A program made the translations under genes and the position numbers. A DNA stretch of 64,000 bases from assembly GCA_023544605.1 (NCBI GenBank), contig JAMJFQ010000001.1:6410-70409 (forward strand), in the 5' to 3' direction. The notes below the pieces were generated by a model. The model worked only from the letters and a program-made list of their open reading frames with translations, made no database searches and was not told the DNA's origin. Of this stretch, positions 876 to 52,976 are shown piece after piece (position 1 is the stretch's first letter; each line of letters starts with the position of its first letter). This DNA comes from ANME-2 cluster archaeon (lineage in GTDB: Archaea > Halobacteriota > Methanosarcinia > Methanosarcinales > Methanocomedenaceae).

Positions 876-1685
876 TTATCCATAGACCTCTTCTACTGAA
901 AAATCCTCATGCACTATCTTAGAGATCTTCTCAACAATAGCAGTGGGATCCTCTGCCTGGAACACGTTACGTCCTATTGCCACACCTTTGCCTCCGGCAT
1001 GTACCGAATCATACACCACCTGCATAAGGTCACGTTCAGTCTCCATCCTGGGTCCTCCGGCAACCACCACAGGGACAGGACATCCTTCCACCACTTCCCT
1101 GAATGAGTCCGGGTCGCCTGTATAATTGGTCTTGATTATATCTGCCCCCAGTTCTGCCCCCACGCGGGCTGCATGTTTTACATATTCCACATCATGTTCA
1201 GAATCGACTTTAGGTCCCCTTGGATACATCATTGCCAGAAGTGGCATACCCCATTCATCACATTTACCTGCGATCATACCCAACCCTTTCAGCATCTCGG
1301 CCTCATCGTGGGCACCCACATTTATATGGACTGACACGCAGTCAGCTCCCACCTTGATGGCCTCCTCGACTGTTGTGACCAGTACTTTGTGGTTTGGGTC
1401 CGGGCCCAGAGAGGTTGAAGCTGAAAGATGGATGATCAGTCCCACGTCCCTGCCGTAACCACGATGACCGTACTTTGGCAGACCCATATGTCCCAGTACT
1501 GCATTGGCACCGCCATCTGCTACTTTGTTCACCATAAATGAAAGGTCCTTCAAACCTTGTATCGGCCCGGCACCCACACCATGGTCCATAGGAATGATTA
1601 TGCTTTTGCCGGTTTTTCGGTTAATGATCCGCTCCATCCGAACCGATTTGCCTATATTTCCTGCCCGCAGGATATTCGTATGCAT
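876..1685 (-). CDS. DhnA-family class I aldolase, most likely ADH synthase (AroA-prime type) or archaeal FBP aldolase
   Basis: 269 aa with IIPMDHG, HLSAST and DIIKTNYTG segments typical of the DhnA/class IA aldolase fold. ADH synthase and FBP aldolase IA cannot be separated by eye. Confidence 0.65.
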
Positions 1686-1864
1686 AAATTACCACCTGAA
1701 TCCATTGAAAGGTTATTATGGTACTTATTTATTTAGCCACCTGTGAAATACAAGCATTATTATTCACATTAGACATATTTAATAATTGCAAATAGGTTCA
1801 TATGCTATGAATTCATATCAATAAATTGGGGTAATGTAATAAAACGAACGAAAGTGAAGTACCA

Positions 1865-2269
1865 ATGAAATTACATGAAATTTTATTGAAGGACATTATG
1901 ACCAGAGGCGTTATTACCATCAACATGGACCTCTCTGTAAAAGATGCAGCTCACCTGATGTCAAGACAGAAAGTTTCTGCAATAGCAGTTACCGATCATA
2001 CTGGTGAGATTATGGGAGTGATCTCAGAGATGGATTTGCTGAAGACCGTAAATGACGTGTCCCTGTTGGATAAACCGGTTGAGGCTGTTATGAATTATCA
2101 TGTGGTTTCTGTTAAACCTACAACTACATTGAAAACAGCGGCAGAGATCATGATGGAAAAAGGTTACCACAGGTTAATAGTCCTTTCAGAATCGGGTGTA
2201 GGTGCATCATATCGTCCTGTAGGAATAATAAGTGCCAGTGATATTGTAAAGACCATTACACAGCTCTGA
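1865..2269 (+). CDS. CBS-domain pair protein
   Basis: 134 aa made of two CBS-like repeats (IMTRGVITINMDLSVKDAAHLM... and VMNYHVVSVKPTTTLKTAAEIM...). Ends 10 nt from the convergent ClC gene. Confidence 0.75.
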   Translation: MKLHEILLKDIMTRGVITINMDLSVKDAAHLMSRQKVSAIAVTDHTGEIMGVISEMDLLKTVNDVSLLDKPVEAVMNYHVVSVKPTTTLKTAAEIMMEKGYHRLIVLSESGVGASYRPVGIISASDIVKTITQL

Positions 2270-2279
2270 GAATTGTTCG

Positions 2280-4076
2280 TTATAACTGCCGCTTACTGGC
2301 AGGGAGTCTGCAAAACTTTGAGCTTAACTGAGCATGTTCCCTGATAATATCTGATTTAGTTAACATGCCAATCATCCTGGTGGGGTTATTTCGGTCCACA
2401 ACAGGCAGCCGTCCGATCTTGTTATCCAGCAATTTCCTTAGTGCAGATTCAAGTGTCTCGTCCTCATAGGTCACCACCAGCGAGCGTGTCATAATCTCCT
2501 TCACCTGTATAGTATCCCGTTCATCAAAGGGCACTTTTTCTGCGTCCTCGAAAGTGACCATACCTACCAGTTCCAGATTGTCCAGTACAGGGTAACCGAT
2601 ATGGCGGTATTTGTGAATAAGGTTCAATACTGTCTGTACTTTTGTAGCCGGACTCACAGTAATAATGTCGCTGCACATAACATCTTTTACACTGACCAGT
2701 TCCAGTACGTCTATGGTCATTTCGCGGCGGTGGGCAGGGGAGTCTATCCGGCTGGGGACCTGCTTTTCATAAATAGACCACTTACCTGACATGACATATG
2801 CCAGGGTCGAAGCCAGCATAAGGGGCGGCAACAGGTTGTAGTTCCCGGTAAGTTCTGATACCATGATTATTGCGGCAATAGGTGTTTTTGCCACTCCGGC
2901 CAGCAGTGCAGCCATTCCTACAAGCACGAAGGTCGAGTATTCTATTACAATGGTGGGGAAGAGGGTATTGAAGGTAATCCCTAAAAACCCGCCCAGCATC
3001 GCACCGACCACCAGGGTGGGCCCGAACACACCGCCGCTACCACCACTGCTGATACTGAAGGATGTGGCAATGATCTTGGCGAATAGCAATATTATCAGCG
3101 ATCCAACTAACAGTTCCTGGTTAATGGTCAACTGGATCAACCCGTATCCCACACCCAGACTCTGGGGTACGAAAAATGCCATAATGCCCAGCAGTAAACC
3201 ACCAATGGCTGGTTTGAAATGTTTGGGTATGGCAAGTTTCCTGAAAAGGTCTCTTAGCCCGCAGAACACATGGATATAAAAAATGCCCACAGCCGCAGCC
3301 GCAATACCCAGCAGGGCATAGAATATTAGTTCGTTGGGATGATTGAACTGGTAATCGGGCATTGAGAACAGTGAATCCCAGCCGAAAAAAGAACAGAATA
3401 TAGAGTAGGCGATAGTTGACGAAATGAAAGCCGGTACAATTCCTTCTGATTCAGAACCTTGCCTGTACAGTACTTCGATGGCGAAGATGGCACCACCCAG
3501 GGGCGCCTTGAATATACTACCAATACCTGCCGCCATTCCACATATTACCAGGATACGTCGGTCCCTTTCAGTCAGGTTAAGTTTGGTCGCAAGTACTGAG
3601 CCGAAACCTGCGCTGATCTGTGCTATTGGTCCTTCCCTGCCTGCACTGCCTCCTGAACCGATGGTTATCATGGATGCAGCGGCCTTGATGAAAGGCACAC
3701 GTGTACGTATCACGCCTCTGTGCCGATGATAGGAGTCTATGACCGAATCGGTCCCGTGACCCTCTGTTTCGGGTGCATAGCCGTAGACTAAGAAGCCTGC
3801 AACCAGTCCACCAAGGGCCGGTAGAAGTATGAGCAGTAAGTGATGGGGGTTGGAGGGGGGTACGACCAACAGGTCAATATCACCCCCGGGTGTAGCAGGG
3901 TAGTATCCACCTATACCGCCCAACAGGTAGTAGGTGGAGTAATACAAACCTGAATAGAAGAGCACTGCGACCAGGCCGCCGACCACACCTACTATGGTGC
4001 TGAGCAGGGTCCATCGCTGGACCTCTTTCAGGTCGAGTTCACGTACTATCTCAGCAACCCTGCTATTGAACTTCAT
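2280..4076 (-). CDS. ClC-family chloride channel / Cl-/H+ antiporter with C-terminal CBS pair
   Basis: 598 aa with many hydrophobic segments. ClC selectivity motifs are present (GSGGSAGREGP and GGVFGPTL). The C-terminal ~140 aa form two CBS repeats. Confidence 0.9.
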   Translation of the reverse strand: MKFNSRVAEIVRELDLKEVQRWTLLSTIVGVVGGLVAVLFYSGLYYSTYYLLGGIGGYYPATPGGDIDLLVVPPSNPHHLLLILLPALGGLVAGFLVYGYAPETEGHGTDSVIDSYHRHRGVIRTRVPFIKAAASMITIGSGGSAGREGPIAQISAGFGSVLATKLNLTERDRRILVICGMAAGIGSIFKAPLGGAIFAIEVLYRQGSESEGIVPAFISSTIAYSIFCSFFGWDSLFSMPDYQFNHPNELIFYALLGIAAAAVGIFYIHVFCGLRDLFRKLAIPKHFKPAIGGLLLGIMAFFVPQSLGVGYGLIQLTINQELLVGSLIILLFAKIIATSFSISSGGSGGVFGPTLVVGAMLGGFLGITFNTLFPTIVIEYSTFVLVGMAALLAGVAKTPIAAIIMVSELTGNYNLLPPLMLASTLAYVMSGKWSIYEKQVPSRIDSPAHRREMTIDVLELVSVKDVMCSDIITVSPATKVQTVLNLIHKYRHIGYPVLDNLELVGMVTFEDAEKVPFDERDTIQVKEIMTRSLVVTYEDETLESALRKLLDNKIGRLPVVDRNNPTRMIGMLTKSDIIREHAQLSSKFCRLPASKRQL

Positions 4077-23004: not shown

Positions 23005-23898
23005 ATGATACCTTCACCAGCGATCAAACAACAGTCAGACCTGACAATTCTCATACCATCATCCCTGACATCAGAGACAAGGGATGAGAGGATAAGGACA
23101 TACAAGGTCGGCCAGATCGCCAGGGCGGCATCGGTGTTTCGGGTCAGTAAGATAATCATCTACCGCGACCCCCAGTTCGATGATAGCAGGTTCATTGACC
23201 TGCTGTTGAGATATGCAGAAACTCCACAGTATCTGCGAAAACATCTATTCCCGCTCCAGAAGGAACTTAAGTACGCCGGAATATTACCTCCGCTGCGTAC
23301 TCAACATCATCCAAAAGCATCAAGATCATCTGATCTCAGCGATGGAGAATTCCGCGTTGGGGTCGTGGTCCCCGGACCAAAGAAGAGCGAGAAAAAAGTC
23401 GGATCTGACGCAGGCACATGGGTCGATATCGGAATCGATAGCCCGGTTCCCATCAAGTCCTCCCTTCGGGGGGTGCAAATGGGCAAGCGTGTTAATGTCA
23501 GGATCTTTTCGCGACGACCGATACAAGGTGAACTTGTAGAAACGGACGACATCCCTCTCTATTGGGGATACCGAACAATAGTGGAAAATAGCCTTGCAGG
23601 GGCACTGGATAACATATCCAGACAGGATACCCTGATGTTGGCCACCTCACGAAAGGGAAAGGTACTTGATACCCCAGCCCTCGAGGAATTGGGCAGACAG
23701 GTGAGGTTAAAATCACATACTGTTGTGGTATTCGGATCTCCCAGTGAGGGCGTGGAGTCTATATTAGCACGAGATGGCATAGACCTCTCAAAATTTCAGT
23801 GTGAATCACTGAATACCGTACCCGGTCAGGGCACAGCAACAGTACGGACAGAAGAGGCCGTATGGGTGACACTGTCTCTGTTGAACCTGGTCAGGTAG
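23005..23898 (+). CDS. SPOUT-superfamily putative RNA methyltransferase (DUF171 / Methyltrn_RNA_3)
   Basis: 297 aa: LTILIPSSL, YKVGQIARAASVFRVSKIIIY, ETPQYLRKHLFP...AGILPPLRTQHH. The position directly upstream of rpl3 is typical in archaea. Confidence 0.8.
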   Translation: MIPSPAIKQQSDLTILIPSSLTSETRDERIRTYKVGQIARAASVFRVSKIIIYRDPQFDDSRFIDLLLRYAETPQYLRKHLFPLQKELKYAGILPPLRTQHHPKASRSSDLSDGEFRVGVVVPGPKKSEKKVGSDAGTWVDIGIDSPVPIKSSLRGVQMGKRVNVRIFSRRPIQGELVETDDIPLYWGYRTIVENSLAGALDNISRQDTLMLATSRKGKVLDTPALEELGRQVRLKSHTVVVFGSPSEGVESILARDGIDLSKFQCESLNTVPGQGTATVRTEEAVWVTLSLLNLVR

Positions 23899-46231: not shown

Positions 46232-48310
46232 TTATAATAATGTATTAAGCAGAGAATTAATATCCAGTATCAATGCAACCGTTCCACTCTTAATGATAGT
46301 GGCACCTGCAAATCCCGGAAGACGCCCCAGGGACCGCCCTAATGATTTTATCACCACTTCTTGCTGACCCACCAGTTCGTCAACCATCAATCCAACAAGT
46401 CGTTCTTCATGTTCCACAATGACCACAAAGTAGTTGTCATCAGAAAGGTTGCTTTTTGCCTCAAAAAGTTCACTCAGCCTTACCAGCGGAATAACTTTTT
46501 CTCTTATGAGACAGGTCTCTTTTTTATCAACCATTTTTATCTGGTCTTTGTGAATTTTGATAGACTCAAACACGTTATTGAGCGGTAGCACATATATCTG
46601 GCCAGCCACCTTCACTACAAGACCCTTAATGATGGCAAGAGTCAGGGGTAATTTCAACTTCAAACGTGTCCCTTCACCTGGTGTGGAATAGGTTTTAATG
46701 CTGCCACCTAACCGTTCGATATCTCTCTTGACCACATCCATTCCCACCCCCCTGCCTGATATGTCAGAAACTGTTGCTGCGGTGCTGAATCCTGGTAGGA
46801 ATATTAATGAGACCAATTCATCATCGCACATAGCAGCGGCTTCATCTTCTGATATCACTCCTTTTGATAGAGCGGATTTCATTACTATATCTGGATTGAT
46901 GCCTGCGCCGTCATCCGATATTTCAATGATTACATGGTTCTTTTCACGACTGGCCTTAAGTTTCACGATCCCTTCATCAGATTTTCCAGCAGCCAATCGC
47001 TCTTTTGGCATCTCGATACCATGGTCAATTGAATTTCTTAAAATGTGTACCAGAGGGTCATTTATCCCATCAAGTACCGTTCTGTCCAGTTCAATATCTC
47101 CGCCTTCCACCACAAGTTTGACCTTCTTACCACGGCTTCGGGACAGATCACGGATAATACGTGGATATTTACTAAAAATATGGTCAACAGGAATCATCCT
47201 TATTGACATTATATCTTCCTGCAATTCCTCTACTATCCGGCTTAGATGGCCCACTGATTCTGCAAGTTCTGGACTATCGTACTTTGATATGGTATGCTCA
47301 AGCCCGACCTTGTTGATCAACAGTTCACCCACGTGATTCATCAAAATATCCAGTTGGTGGATATTGACCCTGATGTTCTGAATGGTCAGAGTAGGTGCAG
47401 CTGCCTGATTTACAGGTATTTTATTCAGGGGAGTATTTTCTGTTACCTGTACCACTGGTGGAGTAACACTTTCCTGGGCTACCTCCTCGATGTCCAGGGA
47501 ATCCAGGTCGAACTCTTCCGTTTCATCCTCTTTCTCACCTTCAAATATCTTGATTTCAACATCAGAGATCTCAGAAACCGCAAGGGCGCTCTCTTTGAGA
47601 ATATCTCTATCGGCATTAGATGCCAGTATTACATGAAATGTTCCAGGATTTGTCTCCTTGATGGTTGTCTCGGGCGGGTAGACTGCAATTTTGTCACCGA
47701 ATTTTTCAAGGTTACGTATTACAATAGTGGCCTTGGCAGACTTAAGCCCGCATCCCGCGTCAATTGTGACGGTTATTTTATATACATTTTCACCAGATTC
47801 AACAGCTTTGGAAGCGCACCTTAATTCATCTATACTCAGTTCGATCTCGCCAATTTTATCATCATTTTTTTGAATCCCACCGTTTTTTTGAATCCCGCCA
47901 TTTTTTTGAACGCCACCATTGGTTTGTGTTTTATCCAGGACCGACACAAGTTTTTCAATTAATTCTTTTTGTTCAATTATGTCTTTATTTTCTGCAATAG
48001 CTTCTATCATGGATTCAATGACATCAAAACTTTCAAAAATCACATCCATGATCGGCTGGTCAATATCTATCTCTTTATTGCGTATCTTATCAAGCAGGTT
48101 CTCCATTTCATGTGCCAGATGGGCCACTTCATTATACTCCATTGTGGCAGAATTACCTTTTATGGTATGAGCGGCCCTGAATATCTCATTGATCAGGTCA
48201 TTGTTCCCAGTATCCTGTTCAAGTTCAACAAGGGAACGATTCATATTCTGGAGGTGGTCCCTCATATCATTGATGTATATATCCTTGTATTCTTCAAGGT
48301 CATTACTCAT
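46232..48310 (-). CDS. cheA: Chemotaxis histidine kinase CheA
   Basis: 692 aa: HPt AAHTIKGNSATM, N box HILRNSIDHGIE, G1 DDGAGI, G2 GRGVGMDVV, C-terminal CheW-like domain. Confidence 0.93.
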   Translation of the reverse strand: MSNDLEEYKDIYINDMRDHLQNMNRSLVELEQDTGNNDLINEIFRAAHTIKGNSATMEYNEVAHLAHEMENLLDKIRNKEIDIDQPIMDVIFESFDVIESMIEAIAENKDIIEQKELIEKLVSVLDKTQTNGGVQKNGGIQKNGGIQKNDDKIGEIELSIDELRCASKAVESGENVYKITVTIDAGCGLKSAKATIVIRNLEKFGDKIAVYPPETTIKETNPGTFHVILASNADRDILKESALAVSEISDVEIKIFEGEKEDETEEFDLDSLDIEEVAQESVTPPVVQVTENTPLNKIPVNQAAAPTLTIQNIRVNIHQLDILMNHVGELLINKVGLEHTISKYDSPELAESVGHLSRIVEELQEDIMSIRMIPVDHIFSKYPRIIRDLSRSRGKKVKLVVEGGDIELDRTVLDGINDPLVHILRNSIDHGIEMPKERLAAGKSDEGIVKLKASREKNHVIIEISDDGAGINPDIVMKSALSKGVISEDEAAAMCDDELVSLIFLPGFSTAATVSDISGRGVGMDVVKRDIERLGGSIKTYSTPGEGTRLKLKLPLTLAIIKGLVVKVAGQIYVLPLNNVFESIKIHKDQIKMVDKKETCLIREKVIPLVRLSELFEAKSNLSDDNYFVVIVEHEERLVGLMVDELVGQQEVVIKSLGRSLGRLPGFAGATIIKSGTVALILDINSLLNTLL

Positions 48311-49794: not shown

Positions 49795-51834
49795 TTATGA
49801 TACTTTAAACTTGCTTACCGATTCTTGCAGATTATTAGCAAGCTGGGCCAGTTCCTGGGCAGAGGAGGTCAACTCTTCCATGGATGCAGTCTGCTCCTCG
49901 GTTGATGCAGCTGACTCTTCAGTGGAATTCAGGTTATCGTCCACGATTGACGCCATGCGGTCCATTGCATTTACCACATTATCAGTATTGACTTTTTGCG
50001 CTTCTACAATATCGGTAATACCTTTAATCCTGGTTGCGGTTTCATTCACTGCTTCGGAAATGTTCTCCAGCAGGTGCAATGCGTTGCTGGTCATTTCAAT
50101 ACCTTCGGCAGCCACGGAAGTACCCACTTCAGTATATTTTACCGCATTGTTCGTATCTTCAGAGATTTCTTTTATAAGGGCATCGATCTGTTCAGCGGCC
50201 TTCTTTGACTCTTCGGCAAGGTTCCTGACCTCAGCTGCTACAACAGCGAATCCGCGCCCCTGTTCACCGGCCCTGGCCGCCTCGATGGCAGCATTGAGTG
50301 CAAGCAGATTGGTCTGGTCGGCAATTGAAGTGATAACGTCCACGATACTGCTGATCTTGCGTGATTTCACTCCCAGTCCTTCAACAGCAGATGCAGAATC
50401 AGCAAGTTTTTCTTTAACCACTTCAAGTTTATCCATTGCTTCCTTGGCTGCTACACTACTCGTATTTGCCATTTCGTTGGTATGCTCTGAGAACTCCTTG
50501 ACCTTGTCCACAGTACTGGAGATCTCATCAGTGGTCTGGGAGAGCCTGACAAGTTCCCTTGACATGTTTTCTACTTCTCTTGCCTGGTCATTGGCACCCT
50601 GTGCAATGAGCTGTATTTTTGAAGATACCTGCTCGGTTGTAGCACTAAGTTCCTCACTGGACGCTGCCAGTTCCTGGGCTGTAGAGCCAACCGTAATGGC
50701 AACATCCTTGATGTTGGTGATTATTTTCTTGATATCTTCTTTCATTTTGATAAATGTCTTTGCCAGGTCACCTATCTCGTCATTGCTGGCAACGTCAATT
50801 TTATGTGTGAGGTCTCCCTTTGCGATATGATTAACATGGTTTCCAAAGTCAGATATAGATCTAATTACTCTCTGTATGATCCCTAACATTAACATAACCA
50901 GTCCCAGCACCAGTAAAGTGGCCAGTGCAACCATAATTATTGACATCCTGATATTGTTTTGGACTTTATCTTTTATGGTCAACTGTATCTGGTTATTAGA
51001 GGAAAGAATATCATCAAGATTCATGTGTATCCTTTTTTCGTTCGAACCAAGTTGGTACAATAACTCAGATTGTGCAATATCATTTTCTCCTAACTGTTCG
51101 TTTAAGGTTACGACCTGACTAAAAATGATTGAATTCTGATTGGTTAACTGAATCAGTTGATCTTTACTATTATCGTCAAGATCGGATGCTGAAATGTCTG
51201 TTTTAATCGATGATATAAGATTTTCAACTTTCTGTGCATTGGTATTTGTGGGTTCGAACAAATATTGGGATTCAGATGACTGTAATTCCAATATTTTATT
51301 ACATAGATCAGGTATATTAAGTGACTTTGTAAATGCCAGCATCTCGTTAGATTTTGTAATCATCTGGCCGCCAAGACCAGTATTACTATTACCGATATCT
51401 TCTATTATAACGATACTTGAATCATGCATATCCATGATTTCCATAGCAATTTCTTCAAAATATTTTTGAGAAGACAACAGATTGTTGGCGGCGTTTTTAT
51501 CCTCAATTATATCGACATAAGATACTATCTGTATCTGATATGATTCAATATTTAACAGACTTTCCTGGAAATCCTGCCGGATCTGCTGCCTTGTTGGATA
51601 ATCGTCTACAAGTAAATATTTATGGATCATTATGATACAATGATTGACCTCATCATGTGTTTTATATGCTATTGATGAGAGGGGCCACCTAATTTCAAGG
51701 ATTTCGTCCACATTATCCTGCATGGTAATAATATTATATACCGAAATAGTACCTATGATTGCCATTAATACGGCAAATGCCAAAAAACTTGAAACAAGTG
51801 TTTTTTTAATAGTCATCCGTTTAGTATCACTCAT
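49795..51834 (-). CDS. Methyl-accepting chemotaxis protein (two TM helices, ~270-aa outer domain, HAMP, signalling domain)
   Basis: 679 aa: HAMP (DEIGDLAKTFIKM) and the highly conserved hairpin LLALNAAIEAARAGEQGRGFAVVAAEVRNLAEES. Confidence 0.92.
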   Translation of the reverse strand: MSDTKRMTIKKTLVSSFLAFAVLMAIIGTISVYNIITMQDNVDEILEIRWPLSSIAYKTHDEVNHCIIMIHKYLLVDDYPTRQQIRQDFQESLLNIESYQIQIVSYVDIIEDKNAANNLLSSQKYFEEIAMEIMDMHDSSIVIIEDIGNSNTGLGGQMITKSNEMLAFTKSLNIPDLCNKILELQSSESQYLFEPTNTNAQKVENLISSIKTDISASDLDDNSKDQLIQLTNQNSIIFSQVVTLNEQLGENDIAQSELLYQLGSNEKRIHMNLDDILSSNNQIQLTIKDKVQNNIRMSIIMVALATLLVLGLVMLMLGIIQRVIRSISDFGNHVNHIAKGDLTHKIDVASNDEIGDLAKTFIKMKEDIKKIITNIKDVAITVGSTAQELAASSEELSATTEQVSSKIQLIAQGANDQAREVENMSRELVRLSQTTDEISSTVDKVKEFSEHTNEMANTSSVAAKEAMDKLEVVKEKLADSASAVEGLGVKSRKISSIVDVITSIADQTNLLALNAAIEAARAGEQGRGFAVVAAEVRNLAEESKKAAEQIDALIKEISEDTNNAVKYTEVGTSVAAEGIEMTSNALHLLENISEAVNETATRIKGITDIVEAQKVNTDNVVNAMDRMASIVDDNLNSTEESAASTEEQTASMEELTSSAQELAQLANNLQESVSKFKVS

Positions 51835-51931
51835 TATATCCCCTCAGATATCAAATAGTTCATTTTTGCCTAAATATAATAATGAATAAGTATAATAATA
51901 ATCAGTATTTAAACTTATCCCACTTGAAATG

Positions 51932-52116
51932 CAAGAAAATCCTCCCTTCGGTCGGATTAACTTGAGTACATAATCTTATAGATTATATACAACAAGAAAA
52001 TCCTCCCTTCGGTCGGATTAACTTGAGTACATAATCTTATAGATTATATACAACAAGAAAATCCTCCCTCACGGTAGGATTAACTTGACTGCATAAAGTT
52101 ATACTTTATGTACTAT
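51932..52116. repeat. Three tandem 61-bp units in the mcp/cheR divergent intergenic region, each with two palindromes
   Basis: Units start at 51932, 51993 and 52054. Units 1 and 2 are identical. Unit 3 differs, yet both inverted repeats (AATCC...GGATT; ATAATCT-TAT-AGATTAT vs CATAAAGT-TAT-ACTTTATG) remain self-complementary. Confidence 0.9.
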
Positions 52117-52136
52117 AAAAAAAGAGCATTATCATC

Positions 52137-52976
52137 ATGACCGAGCAGGACCGTCTACTCACACTCAAAAAAATAATATTGGATAAATTGAATTTTGATC
52201 TGGGGCAGTATAAGGAAAGTTATATTGAACGGAGGGTCAACACCAGGATTAACCTGACCCATACGGGTAACCTTCATGAATATATCAAGCTGCTGGAAAA
52301 AGACCAGGCAGAACTCATGAACCTGATGGATTCACTTACCGTGAACGTGACCAAATTTTTCAGGAATATTGAGACCTTTGAGACACTGGAAAAAGACATT
52401 ATTCCAAAAATAATAAAGAACAAGAATAACAGTTCCAGGGATATAATAAAAGTGTGGAGTGCAGGCTGTTCTTCCGGTGAGGAATTATATACGCTGACCA
52501 TTTTATTTCTTGAGGCATTGGAAAAATCGGGAAAACAGTATAAGTTATTGGTCCAGGGCACTGATATTGACCGAAAAAGCCTCACAAAAGCCAGGATTGG
52601 CAGATACAGGAGCGAAAATGTAAAGAGTATCCGAAAAGATCTGCTTGAGAAATATTTTGAAAATGATGGAACCTATTACCATGTTAAACCTCACGTTAAA
52701 GAGCATGTAAAGATCAATCATCTTGATCTTAGTTCTGACTTTGATAGATTAAGTATTACGTATGAATTGATCTTATGCAGGAACGTGGTGATATATTTTA
52801 ATAAAGATGTGAAACAGGCTCTATTTATGAAATTTTACAATATGCTGCAAAAGGACGGTTTTCTGGTACTGGGTAAGAACGAATCCATCACAGGTGATGC
52901 TTTATGTCATCTGGAAAACGTGAACATTTCAGAACGCGTGTACAAAAAGACCCTGCACGGCAAGATCACAGACTAA
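52137..52976 (+). CDS. cheR: Chemotaxis protein methyltransferase CheR
   Basis: 279 aa: ...TVNVTKFFRN..., VWSAGCSSGEELYTL (SAM motif), ILCRNVVIYF. Confidence 0.9.
   Translation: MTEQDRLLTLKKIILDKLNFDLGQYKESYIERRVNTRINLTHTGNLHEYIKLLEKDQAELMNLMDSLTVNVTKFFRNIETFETLEKDIIPKIIKNKNNSSRDIIKVWSAGCSSGEELYTLTILFLEALEKSGKQYKLLVQGTDIDRKSLTKARIGRYRSENVKSIRKDLLEKYFENDGTYYHVKPHVKEHVKINHLDLSSDFDRLSITYELILCRNVVIYFNKDVKQALFMKFYNMLQKDGFLVLGKNESITGDALCHLENVNISERVYKKTLHGKITD

Follow-up and report, generated by a model that had tools for sequence, protein, structure and literature searches.

The window, that is, the whole stretch of 64,000 nucleotides that was analyzed, comes from an ANME-2 cluster archaeon and carries the divergent genes mcp and cheR, of which mcp is the first gene of a cheW-cheY-cheB-cheA operon. 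The CheR encoded here is 94% identical to that of another ANME-2 cluster archaeon, the closest relative (locus L001, GCA_029210685.1), and the next CheR relatives, at 60-67%, belong to 'Candidatus Methanocomedens' and other Methanosarcinales MAGs. The spacer between the two genes is 302 bp long and contains three units of a repeat. The features at this locus are as follows:

49795..51834, minus strand: mcp, methyl-accepting chemotaxis protein with 4HB_MCP, HAMP and MCPsignal domains (Pfam)
51835..51931, no strand: mcp-proximal part of the spacer, outside the repeat, 112/118 identical to L001 (spacer alignment by eye)
51907-51914, minus strand: TATA-like box TATTTAAA, putative promoter element of mcp
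51932..51992, plus strand: unit 1, consensus-type copy of the B1 subfamily (covariance model score 93.5 bits)
51932..51964, plus strand: hairpin A of unit 1 (folds, covariation, stem variants)
51966..51990, plus strand: hairpin B of unit 1 (repeat search, folds, covariation); that of unit 2 lies at 52027-52051
51993..52053, plus strand: unit 2, identical to unit 1 (repeat searches, covariance model)
51993-52025 and 52054-52087, plus strand: hairpins A of units 2 and 3, the latter with AATCCT/AGGATT, same structure as in unit 1
52054..52115, plus strand: unit 3, 62 nt, B2 subfamily (covariance model score 81.3 bits)
52092..52110, plus strand: hairpin B of unit 3, CATAAAGT-TAT-ACTTTATG, 8 bp, perfect
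52104..52111, plus strand: TATA-box-like CTTTATGT in the 3' arm of hairpin B of unit 3 (sequence)
52116..52123, plus strand: T + A7 run directly 3' of the array; the same run, GATAAAAAAAGG, stands in unit-free orthologous spacers
52137..52976, plus strand: cheR, with CheR_N and CheR methyltransferase domains (Pfam)

The original prediction had described this array as three head-to-tail 61-bp units, and the description holds in its particulars. The array spans 51932-52115, and its units start at 51932, 51993 and 52054. On the window, Tandem Repeats Finder detects a repeat at 51932-52103 (period 61, 2.8 copies, 93% matches, score 293), a repeat search places the copies at 51932, 51993 and 52054/52055, and a 29-nt probe taken from the unit matches the 64-kb window only within the array, with a chance expectation of 0. 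Units 1 and 2 are indeed 100% identical by repeat search, and if the window is a short-read assembly, the copy number of two such identical 61-bp units is insecure. Most of the divergent spacer, 184 of its 302 bp, is filled by the array, which ends 21 nt before the cheR ATG (about 20 nt in the earlier estimate). Both of the palindromes that had been noticed in each unit are present as well. Element A reads AATCC-N11-GGATT in units 1 and 2, with its arms at 51938-51942 and 51954-51958 in unit 1 and 61 positions further on in unit 2, and it reads AATCCT-N10-AGGATT in unit 3 (52060-52065 and 52076-52081). Element B reads ATAATCT-TAT-AGATTAT at 51970-51986 and 52031-52047 in units 1 and 2, and in unit 3 it has the sequence and position listed above.

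Each unit has an ordered architecture of about 61 nt. It begins with CAAGAAAA as its fixed 5' end and continues with hairpin A, which is bulged, with the linker (A/T)ACTTGAGT(A/G)CATA, which is conserved, with an AT-rich hairpin B and with the end TAC(A/T)A. Folding resolves hairpin A into a lower stem CAAG/CTTG, an AA/AA internal loop, the stem AATCC/GGATT, an inner CC/GG and a loop, to which unit 3 adds the one base that makes it 62 nt long. Hairpin B has a loop of 3 nt, and in unit 1 its core at 51970-51986 is extended by GTA.../...TAC over a C.A mismatch. The two hairpins differ in sequence and in shape. The flanks of hairpin B (GTAC, CTAC or GTGC) engage in pairing, and hairpin A is flanked by AA. 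A single unit forms both hairpins with RNA or DNA parameters and on both strands, and RNA folding of a single unit on either strand gives -15.0, -20.2 and -22.3 kcal/mol (z = -2.9 to -6.2). In the repeat search no inverted pair joins the two ends of the unit (CAAGAAAATCC... versus ...ATTATATACAA), which are not complementary.

Comparison of related che loci shows that the array is a variable feature of this spacer. In L001 the gene order is the same and the mcp-cheR spacer of 241 bp holds two units, both with a hairpin B of the unit 3 type and one with the stem A version AATTC/GAATT. Among the eight related che loci, seven (L002, L003 and L026-L030) have the same gene order and mcp-cheR spacers of 124-132 bp without a unit. 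The mcp-proximal 97 bp are conserved in all related che loci. The empty site reads ATGA^TAAAAAAAGG, and its A7 run stays right after the array in the window; from this alignment, the T + A7 run 3' of the array is best read as a pre-existing A-rich target adjoining the element. To the left of the array, the flanks of the window and of L001 share 95% identity, whereas units at the same position are only 82-90% identical (82% for unit 1). Over 57 nt, unit 1 does not differ from a copy that lies next to a DUF356 gene in a different MAG (L008), at an unrelated locus. Thus, units 1 and 2 appear to be fresh, and they look like a recent arrival of a consensus-type copy.

That copy is one of many. A degenerate 24-nt pattern, searched in one genome per species, returned 14 single copies on separate contigs from about 10 Methanosarcinales/ANME-2 MAGs, and a second pattern with another anchor returned 8 further copies from metagenomes and nothing from viral contigs; searches of plasmids, phages and viral contigs were likewise without a match. 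From 14 copies we built the covariance model R1, which at E < 1e-5 detects 26 copies in the ~290 kb of ANME-2/Methanosarcinales DNA collected at that stage. Within the window it finds the array only, and one additional copy lies in loci that had been retrieved for CheR and not for the element. Strict-pattern matches number 1-2 per MAG, and copy number per genome looks low. Several copies lie at contig ends, as is expected because such repeats break assemblies. The flanking genes are unrelated housekeeping genes without a common function: they encode D-aminoacyl-tRNA deacylase, thioredoxin, HMG-CoA reductase, a multihaem cytochrome c together with a tRNA, DUF356, glutamate dehydrogenase, a diaminopimelate-type decarboxylase, CDC48, CitG, a radical SAM protein together with a MinD-like protein, NikR and an AAA_14 ATPase. 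All four configurations of gene orientation are present, with no orientation bias. About half of the copies adjoin the 3' end of a gene or lie between convergent genes (for example L008, at 0 and 42 nt, and L018), and a downstream gene on the same strand is found at only about half of the loci, which is the chance level.

Several lines of evidence indicate that pairing within the hairpins is constrained across this family. In the model-guided alignment, 91.4% of the stem cells pair, compared with 28-39% when the partners are slid by 1-3 columns; 6 of 15 pairs are altered on both sides; and the covariation score is 0.244, a value reached by 0/500 shuffles, compared with 0.060 in shuffles. Stem A occurs in at least five versions (AATCC/GGATT, AATCCT/AGGATT, AATTC/GAATT, AACTGC/GCAGTT and AAATGC/GCATTT) and stem B in three or four, namely ATAATCT/AGATTAT (B1), ATAAAGT/ACTTTAT (B2), ATACTT/AAGTAT and ATATTT/AAATAT. 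Between units 1/2 and unit 3, element B differs in two neighboring pairs that are altered on both sides (T-A to A-T and C-G to G-C), which had been taken as compensatory change under structural constraint. For the repeat family as a whole, this idea is strongly supported; as a local event at cheR it did not stand. Each of B1 and B2 is spread over many unrelated loci, and the version of hairpin B seen in unit 3 (CATAAAGT/ACTTTATG) turns up again at L001, L004, L005, L013 and L014; units 1/2 and unit 3 therefore belong to two genome-wide subfamilies, and their difference did not arise by compensation at cheR. In hairpin A the loop, TCCCTTCGGTC, is better conserved than the stems, as is the linker ACTTGAGT(A/G)CATA, and part of this conservation comes from the search patterns themselves. 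Between the plus and the minus strand, exceptions of the G.U type are balanced (G.U versus A.C, 4:4), and the data therefore fit pairing in RNA as well as in single-stranded DNA, and on either strand.

A second locus offers a comparison of filled and empty sites. The spacer between the convergent genes for DUF356 and an HTH protein is 117 bp long with the element in L008 and L016, and 55-66 bp long without it in L031-L035, in which the DUF356 protein is 93-95% identical to that of L008. The empty site reads TAAGAAAT^CCTG(G/A)AATGG and the filled site TAAGAAA[60-nt element]CCAGAAATGG, so that the two differ by a 60-nt insertion with no duplication and no inverted ends. The evidence from filled and empty sites comes from two loci, cheR and DUF356|HTH, and the difference could in principle reflect precise deletion rather than insertion.

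The position of the element relative to its surroundings follows a simple rule. An A-rich run lies within 14 nt 3' of the element at 14 of 18 independent loci, compared with a background of 12% in AT-rich DNA (p = 2.7e-10), and the 5' flanks at the 18 loci show no enrichment of A-runs. The run is already present in both of the empty sites. This A-rich run (T-rich on the other strand) does not amount to a fixed tetranucleotide, and pairing between it and the foot of the hairpin (4 nt, GTAT/GTAC) is not possible; a guide/target rule in the style of IS608 gives no fit on either strand. In the ~306 kb of fetched DNA we found neither a transposase nor an autonomous parent with the same ends, half-element searches returning known copies only, and no solo A-halves apart from B-halves. 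Among the flanking genes examined, no Y1 transposase gene was seen beside any copy.

Based on these observations we favor, with a probability of roughly 0.65, the hypothesis that the 61-bp unit belongs to a family of short, non-coding, non-autonomous mobile repeats that occupy intergenic regions of ANME-2 (Methanosarcinales) genomes. The element would spread by insertion, without terminal inverted repeats (TIRs) or target duplication (TSD), and would land immediately 5' of a (T)(C)A-rich run. We infer that the hairpins are what is selected, most likely recognized as folded single-stranded DNA (or RNA) by a trans-acting copying enzyme. Such recognition would explain the existence of subfamilies with different yet always complementary stems, and only variants that preserve the structure would found subfamilies. 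With CAAGAAAA at its 5' end, the element itself starts with an A-rich run of the kind it prefers, and a new copy could therefore land directly 5' of a resident copy. Landing of this kind would produce head-to-tail arrays with a period of 61 bp, and the cheR array, which mixes two subfamilies, would have formed in this way: an older B2-type copy (unit 3) would have been joined by a fresh B1 copy, which was then doubled to give units 1 and 2. The identical pair could equally have been made by slippage between A-rich ends.

Small dispersed hairpin repeats are a known class, and it is useful to ask where this family stands within it. In REP families, sub-families with alternative complementary stem residues are known; the definition of a REP requires that one end of the palindrome carry an unpaired tetranucleotide, GTAG or CGTC, and the REP survey covers bacterial phyla only (PMC3733652). 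Like REP/BIME sequences, our elements are short extragenic hairpin repeats (21-65 nt in the class), single or clustered, mostly intergenic and in either orientation, with alternative complementary stem sub-families and without TIRs or TSD. Unlike them, they carry no unpaired GTAG/CGTC tag, have two unlike hairpins per unit, cluster head-to-tail and not as inverted dimers, reside in an archaeal host and show, beside their copies, no counterpart of the single-copy RAYT gene that REPs flank. A second likeness is to IS200/IS605 and its miniatures, among which PATE-type elements are derived from IS200/IS605 ends: here too there are subterminal hairpins near both ends, no TIR/TSD and insertion next to a sequence-defined site instead of at random. 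In IS200/IS605 elements, a guide 5' of the hairpin foot pairs with a conserved tetra- or pentanucleotide, and insertion takes place on the 3' side of the latter; the IS200-type TnpA is the only Y1 subclass in Archaea (PMC6006769). In contrast, the left and right hairpins of our element are unlike each other, its target is a loose A/T-rich run and not a fixed tetranucleotide, no match of a guide to the target was found, and no TnpA/TnpB-bearing parent with its ends was seen in the ~306 kb. Classical MITEs, for example the SM elements of Sulfolobus, are small, non-coding, multi-copy and intergenic, with presence/absence polymorphism. The element shares small size, lack of coding capacity, multiple copies and polymorphic presence between relatives, but it has no TIRs, two filled/empty comparisons show no TSD, and at 61 nt it is shorter than typical MITEs. 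Pneumococcal BOX elements comprise three distinct modules, the internal one of which can reiterate in tandem, and neisserial Correia elements have TIRs and a TA duplication and can create promoters for adjacent genes on insertion. With both of these the element shares the character of a modular small repeat with a stable fold; they have no sequence relation to it, and their hosts are bacterial. In this comparison the element appears to resemble REP sequences and IS200/IS605-type ends most, yet to fail the defining features of each.

No description of the element was found in the literature searched (MITEs in Methanosarcina, ANME-2 repeats, archaeal REP/RAYT), and in this archaeal lineage no such repeat seems to have been described before. 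The analysis thereby defines an apparently undescribed small repeat family in ANME-2, a group that cannot be grown in pure culture; the family shows insertion polymorphism at two loci, its covariation is clear and its targeting rule is simple. Such elements break assemblies, mark recent genome change and may donate promoters. A more far-reaching version of the hypothesis, which we offer tentatively and against the odds, is that this is the first hairpin-defined mobile repeat family without TIRs and TSD described in Archaea, that a new rule, insertion just 5' of an A-tract, makes it self-targeting and array-forming, that hairpin B acts as a portable TATA box able to rewire leaderless genes such as cheR, and that the family is an archaeal counterpart of REP/RAYT or of IS200-type single-strand elements. 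If it is true that a single-strand DNA enzyme recognizes the hairpins, REP-like biology would be extended to Archaea.

The strongest competitor, which we nevertheless consider unlikely, is that the element works at the RNA level as a module in neighboring mRNAs, that is, as a 3'-end stabilizer, terminator or translation modulator, with its spread being secondary and with the cheR array serving as a structured leader or antisense barrier. Many bacterial REP, BOX and ERIC elements act at the RNA level, and the good folding of a single unit as RNA on either strand is what such a role would call for. The stem variants include U.G intermediates (in hairpin B, ATACTT/AAGTAT to ATATTT/AAGTAT to ATATTT/AAATAT; in the lower stem, C-G to U.G to U-A). 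The minus strand presents hairpin A followed by TTTTCTTG and a T run before hairpin B, an arrangement that resembles an archaeal terminator, and a gene's 3' end lies next to about half of the copies. However, there is no orientation bias, sense and antisense copies between co-directional genes being about equal in number, and the 4:4 balance of G.U and A.C exceptions does not single out an RNA strand. Rfam 15 contains no match at gathering score for this region of the window, permissive thresholds giving sub-threshold chance hits only. At cheR itself, the absence of a Shine-Dalgarno sequence and the end of the array 21 nt before the ATG fit a leaderless mRNA that starts downstream of the hairpins. 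Finally, most orthologous spacers lack the element, so any function would be dispensable.

Archaeal promoters have a TATA box about 26 nt upstream of the start, and leaderless mRNAs are frequent. Since the host is archaeal, it is this promoter logic that applies, and not the bacterial operator logic assumed in the original prediction. The TATA-box-like CTTTATGT in unit 3 is centered ~29 nt upstream of the cheR ATG, which is conserved in relatives and has no Shine-Dalgarno sequence before it. In the unit-free loci L027, L028 and L030, an A/T-rich run ATAAAAAA is centered ~32 nt upstream of the cheR ATG, and in the window this run lies only ~15-20 nt from it. Given that CTTTATGT is suitably placed and the run is too close, unit 3 probably supplies the TATA box and core promoter of a leaderless or near-leaderless cheR mRNA. 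Another explanation is that the whole family is a portable promoter or regulatory DNA site, in which hairpin B, with a TATA-like center and a TAT(A/G)TAC flank, is bound by TBP/TFB or by a global regulator, so that the copies define a regulon and cheR has three tandem promoters or sites. TATA-like motifs do occur in and beside hairpin B in all subfamilies, its outer GTAC...GTAC is more conserved than the inner positions, and a start codon on the same strand lies 25-30 nt beyond hairpin B at three loci, those of cheR, CDC48 (L014) and the MinD-like gene (L022). We regard this explanation as improbable for the family, given that a downstream gene on the same strand occurs only at the chance level, that the neighboring genes share no function and that the inner stem positions co-vary, which recognition of double-stranded DNA by a protein does not require. 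About half of the copies face gene 3' ends or lie between convergent genes, including those of L008 and L018, so that promoter donation would be a by-product and not the purpose of the family. As regards mcp, the conserved mcp-proximal motif CAGTATTTAAA(C/T)TTATCC is TATA-like on the minus strand and lies ~75 nt upstream of the mcp start codon; this ATG is preceded by a strong GAGGGG Shine-Dalgarno sequence.

The explanation put forward in the original prediction, in which the divergent mcp and cheR genes are controlled by an array of operators or by a leader or small RNA dedicated to them, is in our judgment very improbable: it accords with the location of the array, the regular 61-bp spacing and the two dyads per unit, but dispersed copies lie at many unrelated, non-chemotaxis loci and at gene 3' ends, the units and their palindromes are missing from seven of the eight related che spacers in an otherwise identical gene order, units 1 and 2 look recently arrived, and hairpin A shows the opposite of a dimeric operator, in which conserved half-sites and a free spacer would be expected, as its arms co-vary (AATCC, AATTC, AACTGC, AAATGC) and its loop TCCCTTCGGTC is largely conserved. 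The dispersal and the loss from orthologous spacers are both outcomes that the original prediction had itself named as counting against it. Under the mobile-repeat hypothesis the array would be incidental to chemotaxis, and an effect on cheR transcription is plausible as a by-product. The analysis thus offers no new view of the control of archaeal chemotaxis, and annotation of the array as a regulatory site of che genes should be avoided. Two other classes were considered and rejected. A CRISPR mini-array would show unique spacers between its conserved repeats, whereas here the whole 61-bp period recurs, with no difference between units 1 and 2 along their length, and copies at other places stand alone. 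C/D-box, H/ACA, K-turn and tRNA-like structures do not fit a consensus without C/D boxes, with an unconserved ACA and without tandem G.A pairs.

Several copies lie in settings of interest in their own right. In L007, four copies (two variant-type, one consensus-type and one decayed) lie within 3 kb at 929-3835, where they occupy successive intergenic regions around nikR and a gene for an AAA_14-DUF4143 ATPase and form a local hot spot. The 442-aa ORF between two variant copies (L007, L025) was considered as a transposase and rejected, since its product is this AAA_14-DUF4143 ATPase, which is not a known transposase. A 1.6-kb block consisting of this gene and a variant element at its 3' end is 93% identical between the L025 (4964-6548) and L007 (1214-2819) contigs despite differing flanks, and L019 (5018-5204) keeps only a piece of ~190 bp with the element and the last 57 nt of the gene; the AAA_14-DUF4143 gene cassette may itself be mobile. 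In L005, a partial 3' half of the B2 type, TTATACTTTATATGCCA, stands directly 5' of a full element at ~3030-3060 on the minus strand; it represents the remains of a further tandem arrangement, away from cheR. The copy that is flanked by a tRNA gene, at its 3' end, and by the start of the multihaem cytochrome c gene, both on the opposite strand, is kept in three species-level MAGs (L006, L011 and L012), in which the 3' flank differs slightly (CACTAAAAA versus CAAGAAAAA). In L009 (555-2722), a gene for an IS1634-family transposase encodes residues 1-254, followed by 335 bp of foreign DNA that include a 5'-truncated element and then by a repeat of residues 4-24 fused to residues 237-575; the junction of the element lies within a shared AAAAT(T)CC motif. 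We rejected this case as an insertion into the transposase gene, since it is a complex rearrangement with duplicated gene segments and is unusable for defining boundaries, and it could be a real rearrangement or an assembly chimera.

Two further observations concern other parts of the window. At 23405-23501 Rfam identifies an L4-Archaeoglobi ribosomal-protein leader, whose 43.1 bits exceed the gathering score; the genome is of the Methanosarcinales type, and the match points to an archaeal origin of the window. The cheA ORF (46232-48310, minus strand) contains an 18-bp tandem repeat at 47863-47920 (3.2 copies of CATTTTTTTGAATCCCAC), which presumably encodes a short repeated linker peptide.
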